Assembly (NCBI GenBank): GCA_963768575.1
Contig: CAVYIJ010000001.1
Location: forward strand, 273,214 to 337,213
Reading direction: 5' to 3'
Source of the DNA: an uncultured Halobacteria archaeon
Lineage (GTDB): Bacteria > Pseudomonadota > Gammaproteobacteria > UBA9214
DNA length: 64,000 nucleotides
Both the position numbers and the translations under genes were made by a program. Of this stretch, positions 30,426-52,640 are shown in pieces. The notes under the pieces were generated by a model, which saw nothing but the letters and a program-made list of their open reading frames with translations, did not search any database and was not told the origin of the DNA. Numbering within the stretch: position 1 is the stretch's first letter; every line of letters starts with the position of its first letter.

Positions 30426-30743
30426 TCAGCCGGCATCGATATCCAGGCCCTGACGGTGGGTCTGGTTGATATCATAGAACAACCTGATACAGGGTAACTC
30501 CTTGTCTGTATACTGTTTTACTATACGCATCAGCGGCAGGTCCCGGCGCCCGAACTGGTAACTGCCGTCCCGCATCGACGCGCGCATTGCCCGCAATTCC
30601 TTCTGCAGCACCTCCACAAACCCCAGGTTGGCATCGATTTCATCGATATCGAAACCCGTTGCCTCGACTATGTCTTCCAGTTCATGGATCGCCTGCTGCA
30701 CAAGTGCCGCATACTCTTTTGCTGTTTTCGCCCTGCCGCTCAT
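30426..30743 (-). CDS. Conserved hypothetical protein (105 aa)
   Basis: ORF MSGRAKTAKEYAALVQQAIHELEDIVEATGFDIDEIDANLGFVEVLQKELRAMRASMRDGSYQF... between aroC and prmB. Coding-like composition; function unknown. Confidence 0.5.
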   Translation of the reverse strand: MSGRAKTAKEYAALVQQAIHELEDIVEATGFDIDEIDANLGFVEVLQKELRAMRASMRDGSYQFGRRDLPLMRIVKQYTDKELPCIRLFYDINQTHRQGLDIDAG

Positions 30744-30764: not shown

Positions 30765-31698
30765 TCAGACACTGTTCGTACTGCGCCCGGTGGCAACCGC
30801 CTCGAACACAGGCCGGTACTCGATGAGCTGGTTGTAATCGAGCAGGAATACACCCTCGCCGCCATATTCAAAATCAAGCCACAAAAACGGTATTTCGGGA
30901 TACTGGTTGCTTAACATTTCCCCGCTATAGCCAACCTCGACCACGATTATACCGCCTGGCCGCAGATAATCAGGCGCGTCGCGGAGGATTTTCACGACGA
31001 TATCCAGTCCGTCATCGCCTGCTGCCAGCCCGATACCGGGCTCGTGCGCGAACTCCTCGCCGAGTTCGTTATATTCAGACAGCGGCACATAAGGCGGATT
31101 CGAGACGATGATGTCATAGCGTTCCGGGCCAAGACCGGTAAACAGGTCCGCCGCTTGCAGCCGTACCCGCTCTGCCCAGACCATGCAAACGCACATTCCT
31201 GCGCGCAACATCGAGGGCATCAGTCGAGATGTCGGTCGCCGTGACTCGTGCGTCCGGGAAGGCGTGGGCGCAGGCAATCCCGATACAGCCGCTCCCGGTA
31301 CAAAGGTCCAGTATGCTGCTGACCCGATCGGGATCGATCCAGGGCGTAAAGCGGGACTCGATCAGCTCCGCAATCGGCGAGCGCGGCACCAGTACGCGTT
31401 CGTCCACGTAAAACGGCATACCTGCAAACCATGCCTGATTGACGAGGTAGGCTGCCGGCTTGCGCGTCAGCACGCGTTGCTGCAACAGGTCCCTGGCACG
31501 CGTGCGATCGGTCTCCGCCGGGACGGTATCCAGCACACTGTCAGGTTGCTCGTAACCGATACCGAGCGCATGCAGGACCAGTGCAGCGGATTCATCCCGG
31601 GCGTTGTCGGTACCATGACGGTAGATGAGTCCATGCTCCTCGAACTGCCGGGCACCCCATTCAATCAGTTCCCGCACCGTCATGGCAGCTTCATGCAT
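30765..31698 (-). CDS. prmB: Ribosomal protein L3 glutamine methyltransferase PrmB, interrupted by a 1-nt frameshift near 31190-31200
   Basis: N-terminal ORF 31114..31698 (..ATDISTDALDVARRNVRLHGLG then nonsense). C-terminal ORF 30765..31277 lies in the +1 frame and holds ERVRLQAADLF...IVSNPPYV (NPPY methyltransferase motif). The aroC-prmB neighbourhood matches E. coli. The junction suggests one G missing from a G-run. Confidence 0.85.
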
Positions 31699-31757: not shown

Positions 31758-32405
31758 ATGCAATCGAAAAAGTCATTTATCCTGACCAGGCTCTTGCCCG
31801 GGGTAGTTATTGCCGCACTCGCTACAACTGCCGGCATCTGGTCCGCCAGGCAGGTAATCAAGCATCGCAACGAGTCCGATCCGCTTGCCGCCACCCGTTT
31901 TCCGGCAGCACGCCCGCTGCAGTCATTCAACCTGGCAGACCATCGAGGCGGCACGTTCGACAATCAATCACTGCTTGACCACTGGTCATTCCTGTTCTTC
32001 GGCTACACCCATTGCCCGGACGTCTGCCCGACAACCATGTCCGTGCTCAATAGTGTCGCCCGGCGACTGCAGGATAGCCATGACAATATCCGGTTTGTCA
32101 TGGTAACCGTCGATCCGGAACGTGACACCCCGGAAAAACTCGGGAAATTCGTCACCTACTTCAATGGCAATTTCCTGGGCGTTACCGGTAACGAACAATC
32201 CCTCGAGCAACTGACAAAACAACTGGGCATTATGTACATGCGCATCAACAAGGAAGACAGCCCCGACAGCTACCTGGTCGATCATACTGCCGGCGTCTTT
32301 TTGTTCGACCCGGACGGCCGTTATCATGCGGTTTTTACGCCGCCATTGACCGTCGATAAGATAACCGCCGACTTTAACAGGATGGCGGGGGAATTTCGGC
32401 AATGA
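31758..32405 (+). CDS. SCO1/SenC family copper chaperone (thioredoxin fold)
   Basis: 215 aa with an N-terminal TM anchor and the CPDVCP copper-binding motif. Confidence 0.88.
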   Translation: MQSKKSFILTRLLPGVVIAALATTAGIWSARQVIKHRNESDPLAATRFPAARPLQSFNLADHRGGTFDNQSLLDHWSFLFFGYTHCPDVCPTTMSVLNSVARRLQDSHDNIRFVMVTVDPERDTPEKLGKFVTYFNGNFLGVTGNEQSLEQLTKQLGIMYMRINKEDSPDSYLVDHTAGVFLFDPDGRYHAVFTPPLTVDKITADFNRMAGEFRQ

Positions 32406-32857
32406 TCCATCGGTGGCGCAGCCGGCTGGCGATACTGCTATTCCCGATGCTGCTCGCGGCGCCGGTTTCGGCAGAGGCAGAACTGCGAATCAGTGACGCG
32501 TGGATTCGCGAGGCACCGCCCGGCACATCGGTGCTTGCCGGGTATATGAACATTGCCAATACCGGCACTGTGGAGGTGTCGGTCACCGGCGTTTCCGGAC
32601 CGGATTTCAGCTCGGTTGAGATCCACAGGACTGTCGTAGAGAACGGTATCGCGCGCATGCTGTCTGCCGAACGACTGGCAATACCGGCCGGCGGCACGCT
32701 CGCCCTGGAGCCGGGCAGCTATCACCTGATGCTGTTTAATCCAGGCCGCGCGCTGGTCGCGGGCGACGTGGTCGACCTTCTCCTGCATACCAGTGACGAG
32801 CGGTGCATTGATGTCAGCGTCACGGTCATGCGCAAGACCGGCGACAAACAGCCGTGA
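32402..32857 (+). CDS. Periplasmic copper chaperone PCu(A)C (DUF461)
   Basis: 151 aa with a signal peptide and the PCuAC motif YHLMLF with flanking Met/His. Translationally coupled to the SCO1 gene (ATGA overlap). Confidence 0.8.
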   Translation: MIHRWRSRLAILLFPMLLAAPVSAEAELRISDAWIREAPPGTSVLAGYMNIANTGTVEVSVTGVSGPDFSSVEIHRTVVENGIARMLSAERLAIPAGGTLALEPGSYHLMLFNPGRALVAGDVVDLLLHTSDERCIDVSVTVMRKTGDKQP

Positions 32858-32884
32858 GTGCGGGCTGACCGATCATATATTTGC

Positions 32885-33781
32885 ATGTCCCGGACCGATA
32901 CAAGCCTGCTGGACTACCTGAAGTCCTGGCCACTCGCCCTGCTGCCACACCAGCTGCTATCCAGAATCGTGCGCAGGGCAACACGCTGGCAGGCCGGCTG
33001 GTGGAAAAATTTCCTGATTAACGCCTTTGTACGGTGGTTCGACGTCGACATGACGGAGGCGCAATTTCCGGCTGCCGTTGACTATCCCGACTTCAACAGC
33101 TTCTTTACCCGCGCCCTCAAGGACGATGCCCGTCCGCAACCGGACGATCCCCGGGCGGTTACCAGTCCGGTGGACGGTCACGTCAGCGCCTGCGGGCGCC
33201 TCGACGAGGACCGGATTTTGCAAGCCAAGGGGCATAATTACTCGCTGACGGCCCTGTTGGGCGGAGATAGCCAACGGGCAGCCCCGTTCCTCGATGGTCA
33301 CTTCGCCACCCTGTATCTCTCCCCGCGCGATTATCACCGCATTCACATGCCCTGCTCCGGACAGCTGATGGAAACCGTCTATATACCCGGGCGGCTCTAC
33401 AGCGTGGCCCCGCACACGACCCGTGCCATTGACGGGCTGTTCACCAGGAATGAACGCCTGGTTTCGGTGTTCGAAACCGCAGCGGGACCCATGGCCATGG
33501 TCATGGTTGGCGCCATCTTCGTCTCCTGTATGGAAACGGTCTGGGCAGGGGTCGTTAATCCGCGCATGGGCAAGTCGCTGCAGGCACGTGATTATTCGCT
33601 GCCGGGACAACAGCCCGCCACCCTGCAGCGCGGCAGCGAAATGGGCCGTTTCAACATGGGCTCGACCGTCATCCTGCTGTTTGGCACCGGCCAGGTACAG
33701 TGGTCCGGCACCCTGGGGCCCGAGCAGGCGATCAGCTTCGGCCGGCAAATCGGTCTTCTGCATCCCGGGAACAACGCCTGA
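32885..33781 (+). CDS. psd: Phosphatidylserine decarboxylase proenzyme
   Basis: Psd motifs YLSPRDYHRIHMP and the GSTVI self-cleavage site (LGST) present. Start chosen at MSRTDTSLLDYLK; a GTG start at 32858 is possible. Confidence 0.9.
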   Translation: MSRTDTSLLDYLKSWPLALLPHQLLSRIVRRATRWQAGWWKNFLINAFVRWFDVDMTEAQFPAAVDYPDFNSFFTRALKDDARPQPDDPRAVTSPVDGHVSACGRLDEDRILQAKGHNYSLTALLGGDSQRAAPFLDGHFATLYLSPRDYHRIHMPCSGQLMETVYIPGRLYSVAPHTTRAIDGLFTRNERLVSVFETAAGPMAMVMVGAIFVSCMETVWAGVVNPRMGKSLQARDYSLPGQQPATLQRGSEMGRFNMGSTVILLFGTGQVQWSGTLGPEQAISFGRQIGLLHPGNNA

Positions 33782-33845
33782 CACGTTAACCAAATCAGCC
33801 GCTCCGCGTTAGTTATATTCGAGACAACGAAATAGGAGCAGCAAA

Positions 33846-34343
33846 ATGAATATCCGTAACCTTGTAACACCGGCCTTGATGGCCCTTTGCCTGGGCACAG
33901 CCGGTACGGTCCAGGCAGATCGCGGCTATACCTCGGCGTTCCTGTACAGCAGCGATAACCATCGCCCGTATCACGACCATGACTATGGTTATTACTACAA
34001 GCACCGTGACCGCCGTCATCACGGTCACAAGCACTACGGGAAACATTTGCAGCGTCACCACAAACGGTACCGTCACGACACGCATGCGAGACATGACAGG
34101 CATCAAGATGACCGCCACGGCTCAAAGCGGCGCGATGGAGACAGGCATCACGATGGCCGCCACGGCTCAAAGCGGCGCGATGGAGACAGGCATCACGATG
34201 GCCGCCACGACTCAAAGCGGCACGATGGAGACAGGCATCACAATGACCGCCACGGATCGTATCAAAAGGATGGAGGCAGACATGACGGAAAGCGTCACAT
34301 TAGCCGGTCCCGGATCGGTATCGGTTATACTGGACGCCTGTAA
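33846..34343 (+). CDS. Secreted histidine-rich repeat protein (putative periplasmic metal-binding protein)
   Basis: Strong RBS AGGAG, then a signal peptide MNIRNLVTPALMALCLGTAGTVQA, followed by His/Asp/Arg-rich low complexity. It includes three tandem 15-aa repeats DGRHGSKRRDGDRHH encoded by 45-bp DNA repeats at ~34110-34250. Confidence 0.7.
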   Translation: MNIRNLVTPALMALCLGTAGTVQADRGYTSAFLYSSDNHRPYHDHDYGYYYKHRDRRHHGHKHYGKHLQRHHKRYRHDTHARHDRHQDDRHGSKRRDGDRHHDGRHGSKRRDGDRHHDGRHDSKRHDGDRHHNDRHGSYQKDGGRHDGKRHISRSRIGIGYTGRL

Positions 34344-34410
34344 TCGATTTAATTTGCAGCAGGGGCGGTGCTCGCGTGCCCGCTCCTGCCGCCCGTCAAC
34401 GGACGCAGCC

Positions 34411-35013
34411 TTGCAACCGGACCACAGTAACAACCAGGCGCTGGAAAAATTCTTTGTCGAGCACGAGGAAAAAGCGTTTTATGTGGCCTATGCTGCACTC
34501 TGGGACCGCGAGGCGGCCATGGATGCGGTACAGGACGGCATGGTGCGAATGGTCGAGTACTACCGCGACAAGCCCGCCAAGGAATGGCCTGCCCTGTTCC
34601 GCACCGTACTGAACAGCAAAATCAATGACATCAGGCGGCGGCGCATGATCGAGCAGGGAAAGTACAAGCTGGTTTCGTTGACCGGTTTGTTCAGGCAAAA
34701 AGGGGATGAAGACCGTGACACAATCGAATACGAACTGCCTGATGCGGAACGTACGGACGGGATCACTGCCCCCGAGGTGCAATATGTGGCAGAGGAAATC
34801 AGGGGAAAGGTGGCTGCCGCCATGCTTGCGCTCCCTGAACGGCAACGACAGGTCTTCGTACTGAGGGAATGGCGCGGGCTGAGCATCAAGGAAACCGCCC
34901 AGACGCTGGGATGTTCTGAAAACAGCATCAAGCAACATCATTTCAGGGCCATGAGGGGACTGCGAAAACAACTTGCAGAGGTATGGGATTATGCACAACC
35001 AACAACATCCTGA
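34411..35013 (+). CDS. ECF-family RNA polymerase sigma factor (sigma-70 region 2 and 4)
   Basis: Region-2-like FYVAYAALWDREAAMDAVQDGMVRMVEYY and region-4-like LPERQRQVFVLREWRGLSIKETAQTLGCSENSIKQHHFRAMRGLRK. A TTG start at 34411 gives ~200 aa; an alternative ATG at 34281 would overlap the His-rich gene. Confidence 0.75.
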   Translation: MQPDHSNNQALEKFFVEHEEKAFYVAYAALWDREAAMDAVQDGMVRMVEYYRDKPAKEWPALFRTVLNSKINDIRRRRMIEQGKYKLVSLTGLFRQKGDEDRDTIEYELPDAERTDGITAPEVQYVAEEIRGKVAAAMLALPERQRQVFVLREWRGLSIKETAQTLGCSENSIKQHHFRAMRGLRKQLAEVWDYAQPTTS

Positions 35014-35446
35014 TACGGAACTGCTGGACCAGCTGCGCGCCGGCCTGCTGGACGAGCAGCCCGAACAGAAATCCGCAATCGAGCAACACCTTGCCGTCTG
35101 CGATGCCTGTCGTACACGCACGGAAATCTGGAAACAGCTGGAACCGGAAAGCCTCGGTCCACGGGTTGATGCCGGCAAGGTCAGAACCTCCCTGCAGGCG
35201 GCACGTCGACACGCCCTGGCGAGCGAATCCCGGGGCCGCCAGCGAGTACTGGTGCCGGTAGCGACAGCGGCACTACTGGTGCTGGCCGTTACTGTCGGAA
35301 TCTGGACAACGCAGTCAGACATTGATACAACAAATACCATGGCAGATGCCGGACAGGCAGTGCCCGACATTTACGAGGATCTTGATTTCTACCTGTGGCT
35401 GGCCAACCAGAACGAGGCAGACGAGACTAACCCCAACAGCACGTGA
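34991..35446 (+). CDS. ZAS-type (zinc-binding) anti-sigma factor with one TM helix
   Basis: HX3CX2C motif (HLAVCDACR) near the N-terminus; TM segment VLVPVATAALLVLAVTVGIW; overlaps the sigma-factor stop by 23 nt (typical sigma/anti-sigma coupling). Confidence 0.7.
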   Translation: MHNQQHPDTELLDQLRAGLLDEQPEQKSAIEQHLAVCDACRTRTEIWKQLEPESLGPRVDAGKVRTSLQAARRHALASESRGRQRVLVPVATAALLVLAVTVGIWTTQSDIDTTNTMADAGQAVPDIYEDLDFYLWLANQNEADETNPNST

Positions 35447-35447
35447 T

Positions 35448-35765
35448 ATGAAATATCGGCATACAATTCCCGGCATCTTCCTGTGTTGCCTGCTCGGCAC
35501 CCTGTCGATGCCTGCACTGGCGGAAAATACTATCCCGTGGCAAAGCCTTAGCGACAACGAGCAGCAAGTTCTGCAAAAACACCGGCGCGAGTGGCCCACG
35601 CTTGACTACGGTCAACAATCCCGCCTCAGGCAAGGTGCGCGCAAATACCTGAGCCTGCCGCCCGAGAAGCGCCAGGCTGTCGAACGCAAACGCGACCAGT
35701 ACAGAAAAATGTCGCCCGAGGAACGCAAGCGGCTGCGCAAGCAATACATCCGCCAGAAGAAATAA
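35448..35765 (+). CDS. Secreted DUF3106-like basic coiled-coil protein
   Basis: Signal peptide MKYRHTIPGIFLCCLLGTLSMPALA then W/Q/R-rich repeats (WQSLSDNEQQVL..REWPTL..QQSRLRQ..). Starts 1 nt after the anti-sigma stop. Confidence 0.6.
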   Translation: MKYRHTIPGIFLCCLLGTLSMPALAENTIPWQSLSDNEQQVLQKHRREWPTLDYGQQSRLRQGARKYLSLPPEKRQAVERKRDQYRKMSPEERKRLRKQYIRQKK

Positions 35766-35870
35766 CCACCCGGCAGTTGCGCCCGGTGCACGACACGGAT
35801 ACCGGCTGCCGACCAACTCTGTTATGCTTTGCAGCCTTTATCTGACCGCCAGCTACCCGGATCCAACGCT

Positions 35871-36668
35871 ATGCATCCCATGTTGAATATTGCCGTACGT
35901 GCTGCCCGTACGGCCGGCAACGTCATCACCCGGAGCATGGCACGGCTTGACAGCATTTCGATAGAAGCGAAGGACCGCAATGATTTCGTTACGGAAGTCG
36001 ACCGGGAGGCGGAGAATGCGATCATCGGCATTTTACGCAAGGCATATCCTCGCCATGGCATTCTTGCTGAAGAGAGCGGACAGAGTGATGGCGACGATTA
36101 CCAGTGGATTATAGATCCACTGGACGGTACGACGAATTTCCTGCATGGCTTCCCGCAGTTCGCTGTATCGATCGCACTGCGCCACAAGGGTCGCCTGGAA
36201 CAGGCTGTTGTCTATGATCCGCTTTCCCAGGAACTTTTCACCGCTACCCGCGGAGATGGCGCCTACCTGAACGATCGACGCATTCGCGTCAGCAACCGCA
36301 AAGGCCTCGAAGGCGCGTTGCTGGGCACCGGTTTTCCATTCAAGGCCCAGCATCATCTGGAAACCTACCTGGATATGTTCCGCGCCCTGTTCCCGCAATC
36401 CGCCGGTATCAGGCGCGCGGGTTCCGCCGCCCTGGATCTTGCCTTCGTGGCGGCCGGACGGCTGGATGGATTCTGGGAGATCGGCCTGAGCACCTGGGAC
36501 ATGGCCGCGGGGGTCCTGCTTATCCAGGAAGCCGGTGGACTATCCAGCGACTTCAGCGGCGGCCACAAGCTTTCTTGAAAGTGGCAACCTGGTTGCCGGA
36601 AACCCGAAGGTCTTTGCTGAAATACTCAAAGCCATTCATCCCCACGTTACACCGCAACTCGCTGACTA
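35871..36668 (+). CDS. suhB: Inositol-1-monophosphatase SuhB, interrupted by a 1-nt frameshift near 36571-36575
   Basis: [17 protein letters not shown]... is nearly identical to the E. coli SuhB N-terminus. The frame ends ...DFSGGHKLS*, whereas the +1 frame continues [24 protein letters not shown] (SuhB C-terminus, GNIVAGNP in E. coli). A T-run sits at the junction. Confidence 0.88.
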
Positions 36669-50426: not shown

Positions 50427-52640
50427 TCAAGTATTGCGCCGCGCGCCGATGACATTCTGCAACTGCCCGATCCGGGTCAGCACCCGGCTTAACTGGCCGA
50501 TATCGGTAATCTCCAGCGTCAGGTTCATACGCGCTATCCCGTCACTGGCATCCGTCCTGGTATTGGCGCCGACCAGGTTGACCTTTTCGTTCGCCAGCAG
50601 TGCGGTAATGTCACGCAACAAACCGGACCGATCGTATGCTTCTACGATGATATCGACCTGGTAGCCCGCTTCATCGGGCAGCCCCCAGTCGACTGCTATC
50701 AGGCGATCGCGATCGTCACCCTGGAGTCGCAGAATATTGCCGCAGTCCTGCCTGTGGATCGACACGCCACGCCCGCGCGTGATGTAACCGATAATGGGAT
50801 CACTGGGCACCGGCCGGCAACAACGTGCGGTCGTCGTCATCAGGTTACCGACGCCCTGGATATCAAATTCACCCGCTCCGGTGTCCCTTGTCTTGCGTCT
50901 GGTCCGCGACTGTTGCGGTTTCAGGGTGTCCTCACGAGGGATCAGCTCACTCAGGGAACGCGTCAGCTGGCCGGTCGTGATTTCGCTGCTGCCCAATGCT
51001 GCGAGAAACTCGTCAACCTGCCTGCCCCTGAAACGTTCCGCAATCTTTTCAACCGGAATATCCGAAATACCCACACGCTGCAGTTCCTTGTCCAGAATTG
51101 CACGTCCCGCAGCCAGGTTGTGCTCATAATCCTGACGCTTGAACCAGGCACGCACCCGTGAGCGTGCCCTCGAGGTATGCAGGTAGCCTAGGTGACTATT
51201 AAGCCAGTCTCTGCTCGGCCTGCCCTGTTTCGAGGTCAGAATTTCCACCTGTTCGCCATTGTTCAATTGCCAGGTCAAGGGCACTATCCTCCCGTTGACT
51301 TTCGCGCCACGGCAACGATGGCCAACCTCGGTATGCACCGCATAGGCAAAATCCAGTGGTGTCGCCCCCTGCGGCAGGTCTATGATCCGTCCCTGTGGCG
51401 TCAACACATAGACGCGATCCTGGAATGCTTCAGATTTGAACCGGTCAACGAAGTCGGCGGCTGTGCGCTCCTCTTCCTTCCATTCCAGCAACTGGCGCAA
51501 CCAGGTAATTTTCTCCTCGTACCCCCTGTCGGGGCCACCGCCTTCCTTGTAGCGCCAGTGTGCCGCAACCCCCAGCTCTGCATGACGATGCATTTCATAT
51601 GTTCTGATCTGCACTTCAAGATTCAGGCCGTCCGGACCGACCACAGCGGTATGGAGCGAGCGATAGAGGTTTTCCTTGGGGTTGGCGATATAGTCGTCGA
51701 ACTCTTTCGGGATATGGCGCCACAGGCCGTGCACGAGCCCGAGCGCTGCGTAGCAGTCTTTTTCCTCGTCGACCAGTATCCGCACGGCGCGCGTATCGAA
51801 AACCTGGTCGAAACTGAGATGTTTGCGCTGCATCTTCCGCCAGATACTGTAAATATGCTTGGTGCGGCCGGTAACAGTCGCATTAATACCGGCAGCTGCA
51901 AGTTCCTGCTCGATTATTTCGATAACGCGCAATATATAGGCTTCAAGTGATTCACGGTCCCCCTCCAGCTGTTTCGCGATCGACTGGTAGGCCTCCGGCT
52001 CCAGGTAGCGCATCGACAGGTCTTCCAGCTCCCACTTGATCTGCCAGATGCCAAGGCGATTGGCGAGCGGCGCGTAAATATCCAGCGTCTCCTGCGCAAT
52101 TCGTTTGCGGCGATCCGCGTCCAGGTGGGCCAGGGTTCGCATGTTATGCAGCCTGTCCGCCAGCTTGATCAATACCACGCGCACATCTTCCGCCATTGCA
52201 AGCAGCAGCTTGCGCAGGCTCTCGGCCTGGTCCGCCTGGTTGCCGTCCACGGTGTCTTGCTGGCGAAACTCTCCAATGCGCTCCATCTTGGTCACGCCAT
52301 CAACCATTCGCGCAATGGTCGGTCCGAAATCGTTACCCAGGTCGGTCAGTGTTATGGACGTATCCTCGACTACGTCATGCAGCATGGCAGCGACGAGTGT
52401 CTCGTAGTCAAGTTTAAGTTCATGAAGAATTTCAGCGACTGCCAGCGCATGCAGATAGTAGGGTTCGCCGGACTTGCGAAGTTGCGCATGATGCGCAGTG
52501 CAGGCAACCTCGATCGCACGGCTTAATGCTTCGCCATGCTCGGCGCTGTGCCCGGCCAGCAGTGCATCGACCCGCAATTGTGCGGTCGCATCGATGCATC
52601 CTGCTCCTGAGCCACCCTGATTGCCGGTCACTTCCACCAA
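50427..52640 (-). CDS. relA: RelA/SpoT-family (p)ppGpp synthetase/hydrolase
   Basis: 737 aa. HD motif intact (MLHDVVEDT). The synthetase region is very close to RelA (KHIYSIWRKMQRK...AELGVAAHWRYKEGG). TGS and ACT regions present. No rpoZ upstream. Confidence 0.9.
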   Translation of the reverse strand: MVEVTGNQGGSGAGCIDATAQLRVDALLAGHSAEHGEALSRAIEVACTAHHAQLRKSGEPYYLHALAVAEILHELKLDYETLVAAMLHDVVEDTSITLTDLGNDFGPTIARMVDGVTKMERIGEFRQQDTVDGNQADQAESLRKLLLAMAEDVRVVLIKLADRLHNMRTLAHLDADRRKRIAQETLDIYAPLANRLGIWQIKWELEDLSMRYLEPEAYQSIAKQLEGDRESLEAYILRVIEIIEQELAAAGINATVTGRTKHIYSIWRKMQRKHLSFDQVFDTRAVRILVDEEKDCYAALGLVHGLWRHIPKEFDDYIANPKENLYRSLHTAVVGPDGLNLEVQIRTYEMHRHAELGVAAHWRYKEGGGPDRGYEEKITWLRQLLEWKEEERTAADFVDRFKSEAFQDRVYVLTPQGRIIDLPQGATPLDFAYAVHTEVGHRCRGAKVNGRIVPLTWQLNNGEQVEILTSKQGRPSRDWLNSHLGYLHTSRARSRVRAWFKRQDYEHNLAAGRAILDKELQRVGISDIPVEKIAERFRGRQVDEFLAALGSSEITTGQLTRSLSELIPREDTLKPQQSRTRRKTRDTGAGEFDIQGVGNLMTTTARCCRPVPSDPIIGYITRGRGVSIHRQDCGNILRLQGDDRDRLIAVDWGLPDEAGYQVDIIVEAYDRSGLLRDITALLANEKVNLVGANTRTDASDGIARMNLTLEITDIGQLSRVLTRIGQLQNVIGARRNT

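Follow-up and report, generated by a model that had tools for sequence, protein, structure and literature searches.

Four co-oriented genes at positions 33846-35765 of a 64,000-nucleotide stretch of contig CAVYIJ010000001.1 (positions 273,214 to 337,213; assembly GCA_963768575.1; hereafter the window) encode, in order, a secreted histidine-rich protein (gene hrp, product Hrp), an extracytoplasmic function (ECF) sigma factor, a single-pass anti-sigma factor and a secreted DUF3106 protein. The source genome is deposited as an uncultured Halobacteria archaeon and is placed by its GTDB lineage in the Gammaproteobacteria (UBA9214). We lean, with modest confidence, towards reading the four genes as an autoregulated ECF module of the type formed by SigAb, AabA and AabB in Acinetobacter baumannii, with hrp as an extra gene, which would be triggered by copper or nickel with Hrp as its effector. 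What is apparently new here is a SigAb-type module that has an anti-sigma factor of the zinc-binding anti-sigma (ZAS) type and an additional, apparently unannotated gene for a putative effector.

The conserved four-gene unit and its promoter

The four genes had been named in a preliminary description made from the DNA sequence alone, and all were recovered in the same places from the open reading frame (ORF) list and from Pfam and NCBIfam scans. Related loci were collected by a pattern scan with one genome per species, which gave 80 loci with sigma factors 44-88% identical to that of the window. All 80 are metagenome-assembled genomes (MAGs), labelled Thiohalobacter, Thiogranum, Ectothiorhodospiraceae, Acidiferrobacterales, Sulfurifustaceae, Arenicellales or unclassified Gammaproteobacteria, and neighbourhoods were compared by searching the ORFs of the loci with the window proteins. 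The order hrp, sigma, anti-sigma, DUF3106 was found in approximately 67 of the 80 informative loci whatever the flanking genes, and is conserved across several orders of Gammaproteobacteria. In the window the sigma and anti-sigma ORFs overlap by 23 nt and the DUF3106 ATG lies 2 nt past the anti-sigma stop codon. Such overlapping or abutting genes suggest that the sigma factor, anti-sigma factor and DUF3106 protein are translationally coupled.

The promoter assigned to the unit (GTTAACC-N15-CGTTA; -35 GTTAAC, 16-nt spacer, -10 CGTT) is located at 33785-33811 on the plus strand, approximately 35 nt 5' of the hrp start codon, and is the sole exact copy of the motif within the 64-kb window. Up to 900 nt upstream of each sigma gene were scanned with the relaxed motif GT[TC]A[ACT]C[CGT]-N14-16-CGTT[AG], which in 72 loci recurs ahead of the unit (the gap being 15 nt in 68 of them) against a calculated chance expectation of approximately 0.006 per locus. 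Counting both strands, 1.7 Mb of locus sequence was scanned, and the roughly 13 matches elsewhere in it fit the background rate. Most hrp-bearing loci have the site 55-60 nt ahead of the hrp ATG, the sequence flanking the motif has no information content across loci, and distant clades carry GTCAAC as the -35 element. The SigAb promoter has been defined by mutagenesis as -35 GTCAAC and -10 CGTT with a 17-nt spacer, a 16-nt spacer being nearly as active (PMC12153292), and was located at position 2768 of the A. baumannii locus (L084). The core of the window promoter matches it (-35 GT(C/T)AAC, -10 CGTT, spacer of 16-17 nt) and we infer that the window sigma factor recognises the promoter at 33785-33811. 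The ECF-type promoter and the autoregulation of a four-gene unit that had been proposed earlier are therefore well supported, the former by its recurrence in 72 loci and by sharing the SigAb promoter core. Scanning the window for other regulon members gave only chance-level matches with two mismatches, and a match at 51012 was discarded as a regulon site, because a 737-aa ORF of the opposite strand spans it.

The sigma gene (34411-35013, plus strand) encodes a 200-aa protein of SigAb/PRK09047-like lineage with matches to Sigma70_r4_2 (3.2e-16) and to sigma70-ECF (TIGR02937, 3.9e-24). It has no ATG start; the TTG start is conserved and preceded by a purine-rich stretch resembling a ribosome-binding site (RBS), and an identical protein called by JGI (P0002) uses the same TTG. 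A sigma factor of FecI type, raised earlier as an alternative, does not describe this protein, as its best family was NF006550 (PRK09047) at 163.3 bits with the next family at 85 bits. Neither FecR nor TonB-receptor families were found in the neighbourhood, and the RpoE family scored 40.6 bits against a cut-off of 236. A total of 436 sigma relatives were recovered at E <= 1e-10, mostly from uncultured Gammaproteobacteria and with 67-100% identity among the 120 matches listed. At loci L055, L057, L060, L073 and L081, which have no hrp, the sigma factor bears a conserved N-terminal extension of approximately 55 aa starting MSDMFLD.L, located some 150-200 nt 5' of the conserved sigma core.

The anti-sigma gene (34991-35446, plus strand, ATG start) was recognised by its motifs and hydrophobic span and encodes 151 aa. 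The HX3CX2C motif and single transmembrane helix that had been pointed out earlier were both found, with zinc-type residues H6 and H33xxxC37xxC40 (HLAVCDAC), one transmembrane span at about residues 86-108 and a periplasmic tail of approximately 45 residues containing PDIYEDLDFYLWLA. Near-invariant features were the N-terminal LDxLRAGLLD, the juxtamembrane L...RR.AL and the D(F/L)Y.W core of the periplasmic motif PDxYEDLDFYLWL; the strict form of this last motif was present in 55 of 75 distinct orthologues and the remaining 20 had a recognisable DFY/DLY..W core. The exact protein sequence is recorded publicly as 'anti-sigma factor RsiW'.

The last gene (35448-35765, plus strand) encodes a secreted DUF3106 protein of 105 aa (PF11304, 51.4 bits against a cut-off of 24.3, E 1.6e-13), which is the counterpart of AabB by position and family. 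It was modelled by AlphaFold2 as helical (pLDDT 83) and a word-indexed search gave only seven close matches. A comparison of its fold with solved CpxP-, Spy- or CnrX-like sensors and chaperones gave no likeness.

The hrp gene and the hrp-sigma spacer

The hrp gene (33846-34343, plus strand) has AGGAG 8 nt before its ATG and encodes a secreted, predicted disordered protein of 165 aa rich in His, Arg, Asp, Lys and Tyr. Its N-terminus resembles a signal peptide with cleavage between GTVQA and DRGY, and approximately 21% of the body is histidine in dense HH/HxH runs, with Asp, Arg and Lys also abundant. The tandem units noticed earlier were retrieved by Tandem Repeats Finder at 34095-34255 (plus strand) as 3.6 copies of a 45-nt (15-aa) unit, DGRHGSKRRDGDRHH, with 93% matches and a score of 280, and a Pfam scan of Hrp gave no match. 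At the roughly 67 loci with the four-gene order, the ORF directly 5' of the sigma gene encodes 90-210 aa comprising a signal peptide and a low-complexity body, and a pattern of hydrophobic-S-hydrophobic-x-hydrophobic followed by S/G-G right after the cleavage site is common across clades. In nucleotide alignments of 23 orthologue pairs, all 44 of the 44 indels were multiples of 3 and pN/pS was 0.30-0.74. Because every indel is in phase and pN/pS lies in this range, hrp is a genuine, conserved and fast-evolving protein-coding gene, which answers the concern raised earlier that the histidine-rich ORF might lack conservation. The AlphaFold2 prediction, made from a shallow alignment, had a mean pLDDT of 46 with the signal helix alone folded and is consistent with an intrinsically disordered protein.

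Few relatives of Hrp were retrieved from sequence collections, with one in a word-indexed search (5.8 billion) and five in an exhaustive profile search (1.84 billion representatives), and the public protein collection that was queried for the source genome has no record of the exact Hrp sequence. In the public record of that genome the sigma call begins at an ATG further upstream, is 243 aa long and overlaps hrp (P0003; window 33979-35013, plus strand), and many sigma homologues are called at 240-330 aa with unconserved N-termini rich in Thr, Ile and Ala. These extended N-termini look like out-of-frame translation of hrp-like genes, a systematic annotation artefact able to hide hrp. A subtype of Hrp low in histidine and rich in G/Y/R/P was seen at L068, L070, L074, L077 and L078; it ends in a cysteine-pair motif (e.g. 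C-I-Y-R-Y-G-Y-L-Y-C-R), which the histidine-rich clade does not have. The idea that Hrp C-termini are signals of the YxF type of outer membrane proteins for a DegS-type protease was dropped, as the C-termini differ between clades.

Near the end of hrp the hexamer TATACT (34326-34331, plus strand) overlaps the codons for Y-T in the C-terminal GIGYTG motif of Hrp. In the closer clades the hexamer is invariant whether inside hrp, 3' of a shorter hrp or at hrp-less loci (L017, L028-L030, L033), and L018 and L019 have TATAAT instead. GIGYTG was considered as a functional Hrp peptide and rejected on the grounds of these two loci and of the invariance outside the ORF. Its conservation is better explained by an overlapping DNA element, because TATACT is unchanged even where it lies outside the hrp ORF, and on this DNA-level invariance the hexamer is proposed as the -10 box, of sigma-70 type, of a candidate second promoter for basal expression of the sigma operon. 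A GC-rich stem-loop at 34356-34392 (plus strand) occupies the hrp-sigma intergenic region and has no T-run. Taken alone the window hairpin is not significant (single-sequence z = -0.42, fold of 34332-34415); hairpins of 10-16 bp and of unrelated sequence follow TATACT in most close-clade loci, with z < -1.64 in 17 of 42. The hairpin is assigned to the sigma leader since it is also present at hrp-less loci, and was rejected as an intrinsic terminator, having no T-run and no plus-strand terminator being predicted. An Rfam search of 33600-35900 gave no RNA element at E <= 1. At L029 (5655-5968) and L030 (5652-5968) a remnant of hrp was seen as a 43-aa ORF with no signal peptide that ends in GIGYTGQQ and is frameshifted in L029, beside which the promoter, TATACT box and hairpin are all intact; this appears to be hrp decay in progress.

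Known systems and flanking genes

When annotated plasmid and chromid records were searched by tblastn, sigma relatives at 36% identity appeared in Acinetobacter baumannii and Ralstonia solanacearum. In the A. baumannii locus the sigma gene is followed by genes for a 106-aa hypothetical protein and a 'DUF3106 domain-containing protein', and this operon was identified as sigAb-aabA-aabB (PMC12153292; Bacon et al., mBio 2025). It shares with the window a sigma factor, a small single-pass anti-sigma factor and a periplasmic DUF3106 protein in overlapping reading frames. The window sigma factor shares 36% identity with SigAb across 159 aa (E 3e-27), the DUF3106 protein, which like AabB matches the Pfam DUF3106 family, is 29% identical to AabB (E 4e-7), and the anti-sigma tails are similarly acidic-hydrophobic (YEDLDFYLWL in the window, VEDLEMLMVL in AabA). 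The membrane protein AabA and the periplasmic protein AabB each have anti-SigAb activity, and AabB is predicted to wrap the AabA tail (PMC12153292). By analogy, the window DUF3106 protein probably binds the periplasmic tail of its anti-sigma factor. SigAb activity was increased 2.5-3.5-fold by copper alone among the conditions tested, and SigAb knockdown resulted in sensitivity to copper and nickel (PMC12153292). The copper response and the SabS/relA regulon are known for Acinetobacter alone; SigAb was termed Acinetobacter-specific and relatives outside that genus are unmentioned (PMC12153292).

The second relative, in R. solanacearum MolK2 (L083; NZ_CP115947.1 526489-533028), belongs to the Burkholderiales PRK09047 cluster, in which genes for a DUF3619, a DUF3106 and an RDD protein follow the sigma gene, and adjoins an acetolactate-synthase-like gene (Pfam). 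The Ralstonia sigma factor is likewise of the NF006550 family and at 36% identity by tblastn, single-pass and DUF3106 proteins follow it, and a juxtamembrane L..L..ARR.AL aligns weakly with the window anti-sigma factor (hhalign E 0.008). It differs in that the anti-sigma slot is held by a DUF3619 protein with no ZAS motif, the DUF3106 protein has 281 aa and an RDD gene comes after; neither hrp nor a SigAb-type promoter was found upstream of the sigma gene in this locus. Literature searches on DUF3106, DUF3619, PRK09047, or a histidine-rich protein together with an ECF sigma and anti-sigma factor returned nothing relevant, and the Ralstonia cluster is uncharacterised as far as the searched literature shows.

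Resemblance to better-known systems was more general. The RpoE-RseA-RseB system of Escherichia coli also combines an autoregulated ECF sigma factor, a single-pass anti-sigma factor and a periplasmic protein acting on the anti-sigma factor, but the window sigma is distant (28 bits to 1or7), the promoter differs, neither window protein matches the RseA or RseB family and the periplasmic part of the window anti-sigma is only about 45 residues long. SilE/PcoE-type proteins are small, Sec-exported, disordered, histidine-rich periplasmic metal-binding proteins under stress-responsive control, which Hrp resembles by description. Unlike them, Hrp is almost devoid of methionine and is linked to ECF rather than two-component control, and there is no sequence relationship (no Pfam match). 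The CnrYXH system of Cupriavidus (nickel/cobalt), an ECF system that responds to metals, also pairs a short anti-sigma factor with a periplasmic partner, and the binding mode of AabA has been likened to that of CnrY (PMC12153292).

Among the flanking genes, the copper chaperones SCO1 (31758-32405, with CPDVCP) and PCuAC (32402-32857) were confirmed by Pfam upstream of the unit on the same plus strand. They had been described as lying immediately before it; a gene for a 307-aa phosphatidylserine decarboxylase (psd, 32858-33781, plus strand; PF02666, 3.8e-59) stands between PCuAC and hrp. SCO1 and PCuAC overlap by 4 nt and the GTG start of psd is the base right after the PCuAC stop codon, which suggests that the three genes (31758-33781, plus strand, outside the module) are one operon. 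As terminator prediction gave nothing from 33600 up to the start of hrp, this operon could read through into hrp. The cluster is syntenic in L001-L054 only, the closer half of the loci, where the order is aroC, a 105-aa hypothetical gene, SCO1, PCuAC, psd, a gap, sigma, anti-sigma, DUF3106, suhB, secF and secD. More distant loci retain only sigma, anti-sigma and DUF3106 of these genes and are flanked by short-chain dehydrogenase (SDR) and DUF1015 genes.

Further upstream on the minus strand, a frameshift near 31250-31280 breaks a prmB-like N5-glutamine methyltransferase gene (30765-31698) into two ORFs that overlap (31114-31698 and 30765-31277). L003, L005 and L006 carry the gene unbroken, and the frameshift is either an assembly indel or the mark of a pseudogene. 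A 105-aa ORF with no Pfam match (30426-30743, minus strand) lies beside aroC in most closer loci and recurs in many other loci reaching far enough upstream. Two loci with sigma factors 81-85% identical to that of the window (L003, JABDRC010000256.1; L005, CAWKAE010000001.1) are deposited as 'Halobacteria archaeon' MAGs despite the full gammaproteobacterial synteny from aroC to secD, and these contigs are probably mis-binned or mislabelled.

Proposed mechanism and alternatives

In the mechanism proposed, the membrane anti-sigma factor would retain the sigma factor at rest, with the periplasmic DUF3106 protein capping the acidic-aromatic tail PDxYEDLDFYLWL as proposed for AabB and AabA. An envelope signal, by analogy with SigAb most likely excess copper or nickel, would release the sigma factor, which would then transcribe hrp and, by read-through, its own operon. 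Mainly Hrp would be made, and the extra sigma factor, anti-sigma factor and DUF3106 protein would provide positive and negative feedback. Hrp would be exported by Sec, stay disordered in the periplasm and act as the direct effector, most plausibly as a polycationic protein that buffers cations or metals. The candidate second promoter, leader hairpin and TTG start would keep basal expression of the sigma and anti-sigma factors low.

Several observations weigh against this reading. The A. baumannii metal phenotype arises mostly by an indirect route through the small RNA SabS (PMC12153292), and the Acinetobacter locus has no hrp. AabA (106 aa) has zero cysteines and no ZAS-type N-terminus, in contrast to the window anti-sigma factor; BLASTP gave no match between the two and hhalign aligned only the tails (VPDIYEDLDFYLWLAN with SPQMVEDLEMLMVLGE, E 0.12). 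The window sigma factor falls just below the NF006550 cut-off (163.3 versus 173 bits), above which SigAb (236.7 bits) and the Ralstonia sigma factor (288.6 bits) both score, and on these scores would be a divergent sister or borderline member of that family. No consensus -35 element was found in a scan for the second promoter. The histidine content of 64 distinct Hrp orthologues spans 3.5-27.7%, and because some have less than 10%, histidine-based metal binding cannot be a property of the whole family. The copper-chaperone neighbourhood is lineage-specific synteny outside the unit, since distant loci keep the trio with other neighbours. A functional tie of the module to SCO1 and PCuAC, as once suggested, thus loses its footing, with psd intervening and the distant loci adjoining SDR and DUF1015 genes instead.

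As the window sigma factor is under the NF006550 cut-off though NF006550 is by far its best family, the module was filed as a divergent relative that would work like SigAb-AabA-AabB and not as a certified member. The metal-stress reading of the module gains indirect support by homology, because SigAb is copper-induced and needed for copper and nickel tolerance, and judging by composition it is plausible that Hrp buffers metals in the clade of the window, where histidine reaches approximately 20%. A bolder claim, which we put forward tentatively and as distinctly less probable than the module reading, is that Hrp represents an unrecognised class of ECF-driven, Sec-exported, intrinsically disordered and polycationic periplasmic proteins rich in His, Arg and Tyr that gene callers would mostly miss. 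It would then be the sole direct effector of a SigAb-family sigma factor, serving in the envelope as a copper/nickel 'sponge' or as a protective condensate crosslinked by metal, and the SigAb family would be widespread, not confined to Acinetobacter.

A rather unlikely but serious alternative is that the module answers general envelope, charge or pH stress, with Hrp protecting or remodelling the envelope, whether it binds anionic polymers (lipopolysaccharide, polyphosphate, exopolysaccharide), uses its histidines to buffer periplasmic pH or forms a matrix or condensate. Mature Hrp averages 17.6% H, 15.8% R, 11.8% G, 11.2% Y and 8.5% D over the 64 orthologues, with 0.2% methionine and a positive net charge in 59 of 64. 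The conserved trait is a polycationic, aromatic-rich (R/Y/G/H) disordered chain, and it is this richness and charge, not histidine alone, that is family-wide; the variants from Arenicellales-like hosts are mostly rich in G/Y/R. Many of the host MAGs carry the labels Thiohalobacter, Thiogranum, Sulfurifustaceae or Acidiferrobacterales, which are sulfur oxidisers, and the neighbours of the distant loci are unrelated to metals, both of which would suit such a role. Against it stand the dense HH/HxH runs of the window Hrp, with its 21% histidine, and SigAb, the closest characterised relative, which among the conditions tested responded to copper only.

It is less likely still that Hrp is regulatory, a periplasmic ligand or co-sensor acting on the DUF3106 protein or the acidic anti-sigma tail and tuning sigma release. 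The basic Hrp is electrostatically complementary to this tail (PDIYEDLDFYLWLA...EADE) and the conserved motif after its cleavage site could act as a docking strand. At least ten loci, however, lack hrp (L017, L028-L030, L033, L055, L057, L058, L060, L073), and all keep the sigma factor and the anti-sigma motif. Nine of them also have DUF3106, with none detected in L058, and the promoter motif is retained in L017, L028-L030, L033, L055, L057, L058 and L073. A. baumannii and Ralstonia also operate the trio without hrp, and fast sequence turnover with repeat expansion is atypical of a specific ligand. The role of sensor ligand once suggested for Hrp therefore fits poorly, and since several lineages retain the trio without hrp, the likelier role of Hrp is that of an output, not a sensor.

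Sensing of cytoplasmic thiol/redox state or zinc through the ZAS motif, in the manner of RsrA, is very unlikely to be the input. H6 and H33xxxC37xxC40 have ChrR/RsrA-like spacing, and HxxxCxxC is present in 68 of the 75 distinct orthologues. The other seven, all Arenicellales-like, lack HxxxCxxC together with the HPD histidine upstream of it but keep LDxLRAGLLD, the transmembrane span and the periplasmic motif, a joint loss that fits a single dispensable zinc site. The match to zf-HC2 (PF13490) is weak (18.7 bits against a gathering cut-off of 22.2), AabA has no cysteines, and in most membrane-bound ZAS anti-sigma factors, such as RsiW and RslA, zinc is structural and no redox switch. In view of the seven orthologues, the redox- or zinc-sensing role first attributed to the motif is not supported; because the periplasmic motif is near-invariant whereas the ZAS motif is missing from a subclade, the conserved input surface of the anti-sigma factor would thus be periplasmic.

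That the histidine-rich ORF is untranslated, as a long leader or as a true N-terminal extension of the sigma factor, is extremely improbable: several frames are open across the low-complexity stretch, the public P0003 call extends the sigma factor upstream to 243 aa and hrp is unrecorded in the collection queried, but the in-phase indels and pN/pS < 1, the signal peptide, RBS and start codon conserved in 64 distinct orthologues, the unconserved sigma extensions and the conserved TTG with its RBS-like purine run all speak for translation of hrp.

The analysis ties a cluster that is uncharacterised and widespread in uncultured Gammaproteobacteria to its only experimentally studied relative, SigAb. 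The SigAb family looks far broader than Acinetobacter, with DUF3106 as its AabB component, and hrp is a conserved coding gene that annotation pipelines may mask. With a compact promoter and a known cognate sigma/anti-sigma pair, testing in E. coli is feasible with the published SigAb reporter design. If Hrp binds metals, it would serve a SigAb-type sigma factor as direct effector, in contrast to the indirect metal phenotype in Acinetobacter, and if the Hrp class is real it would give the SigAb family a direct link from sigma factor to metal defence that is absent in Acinetobacter.

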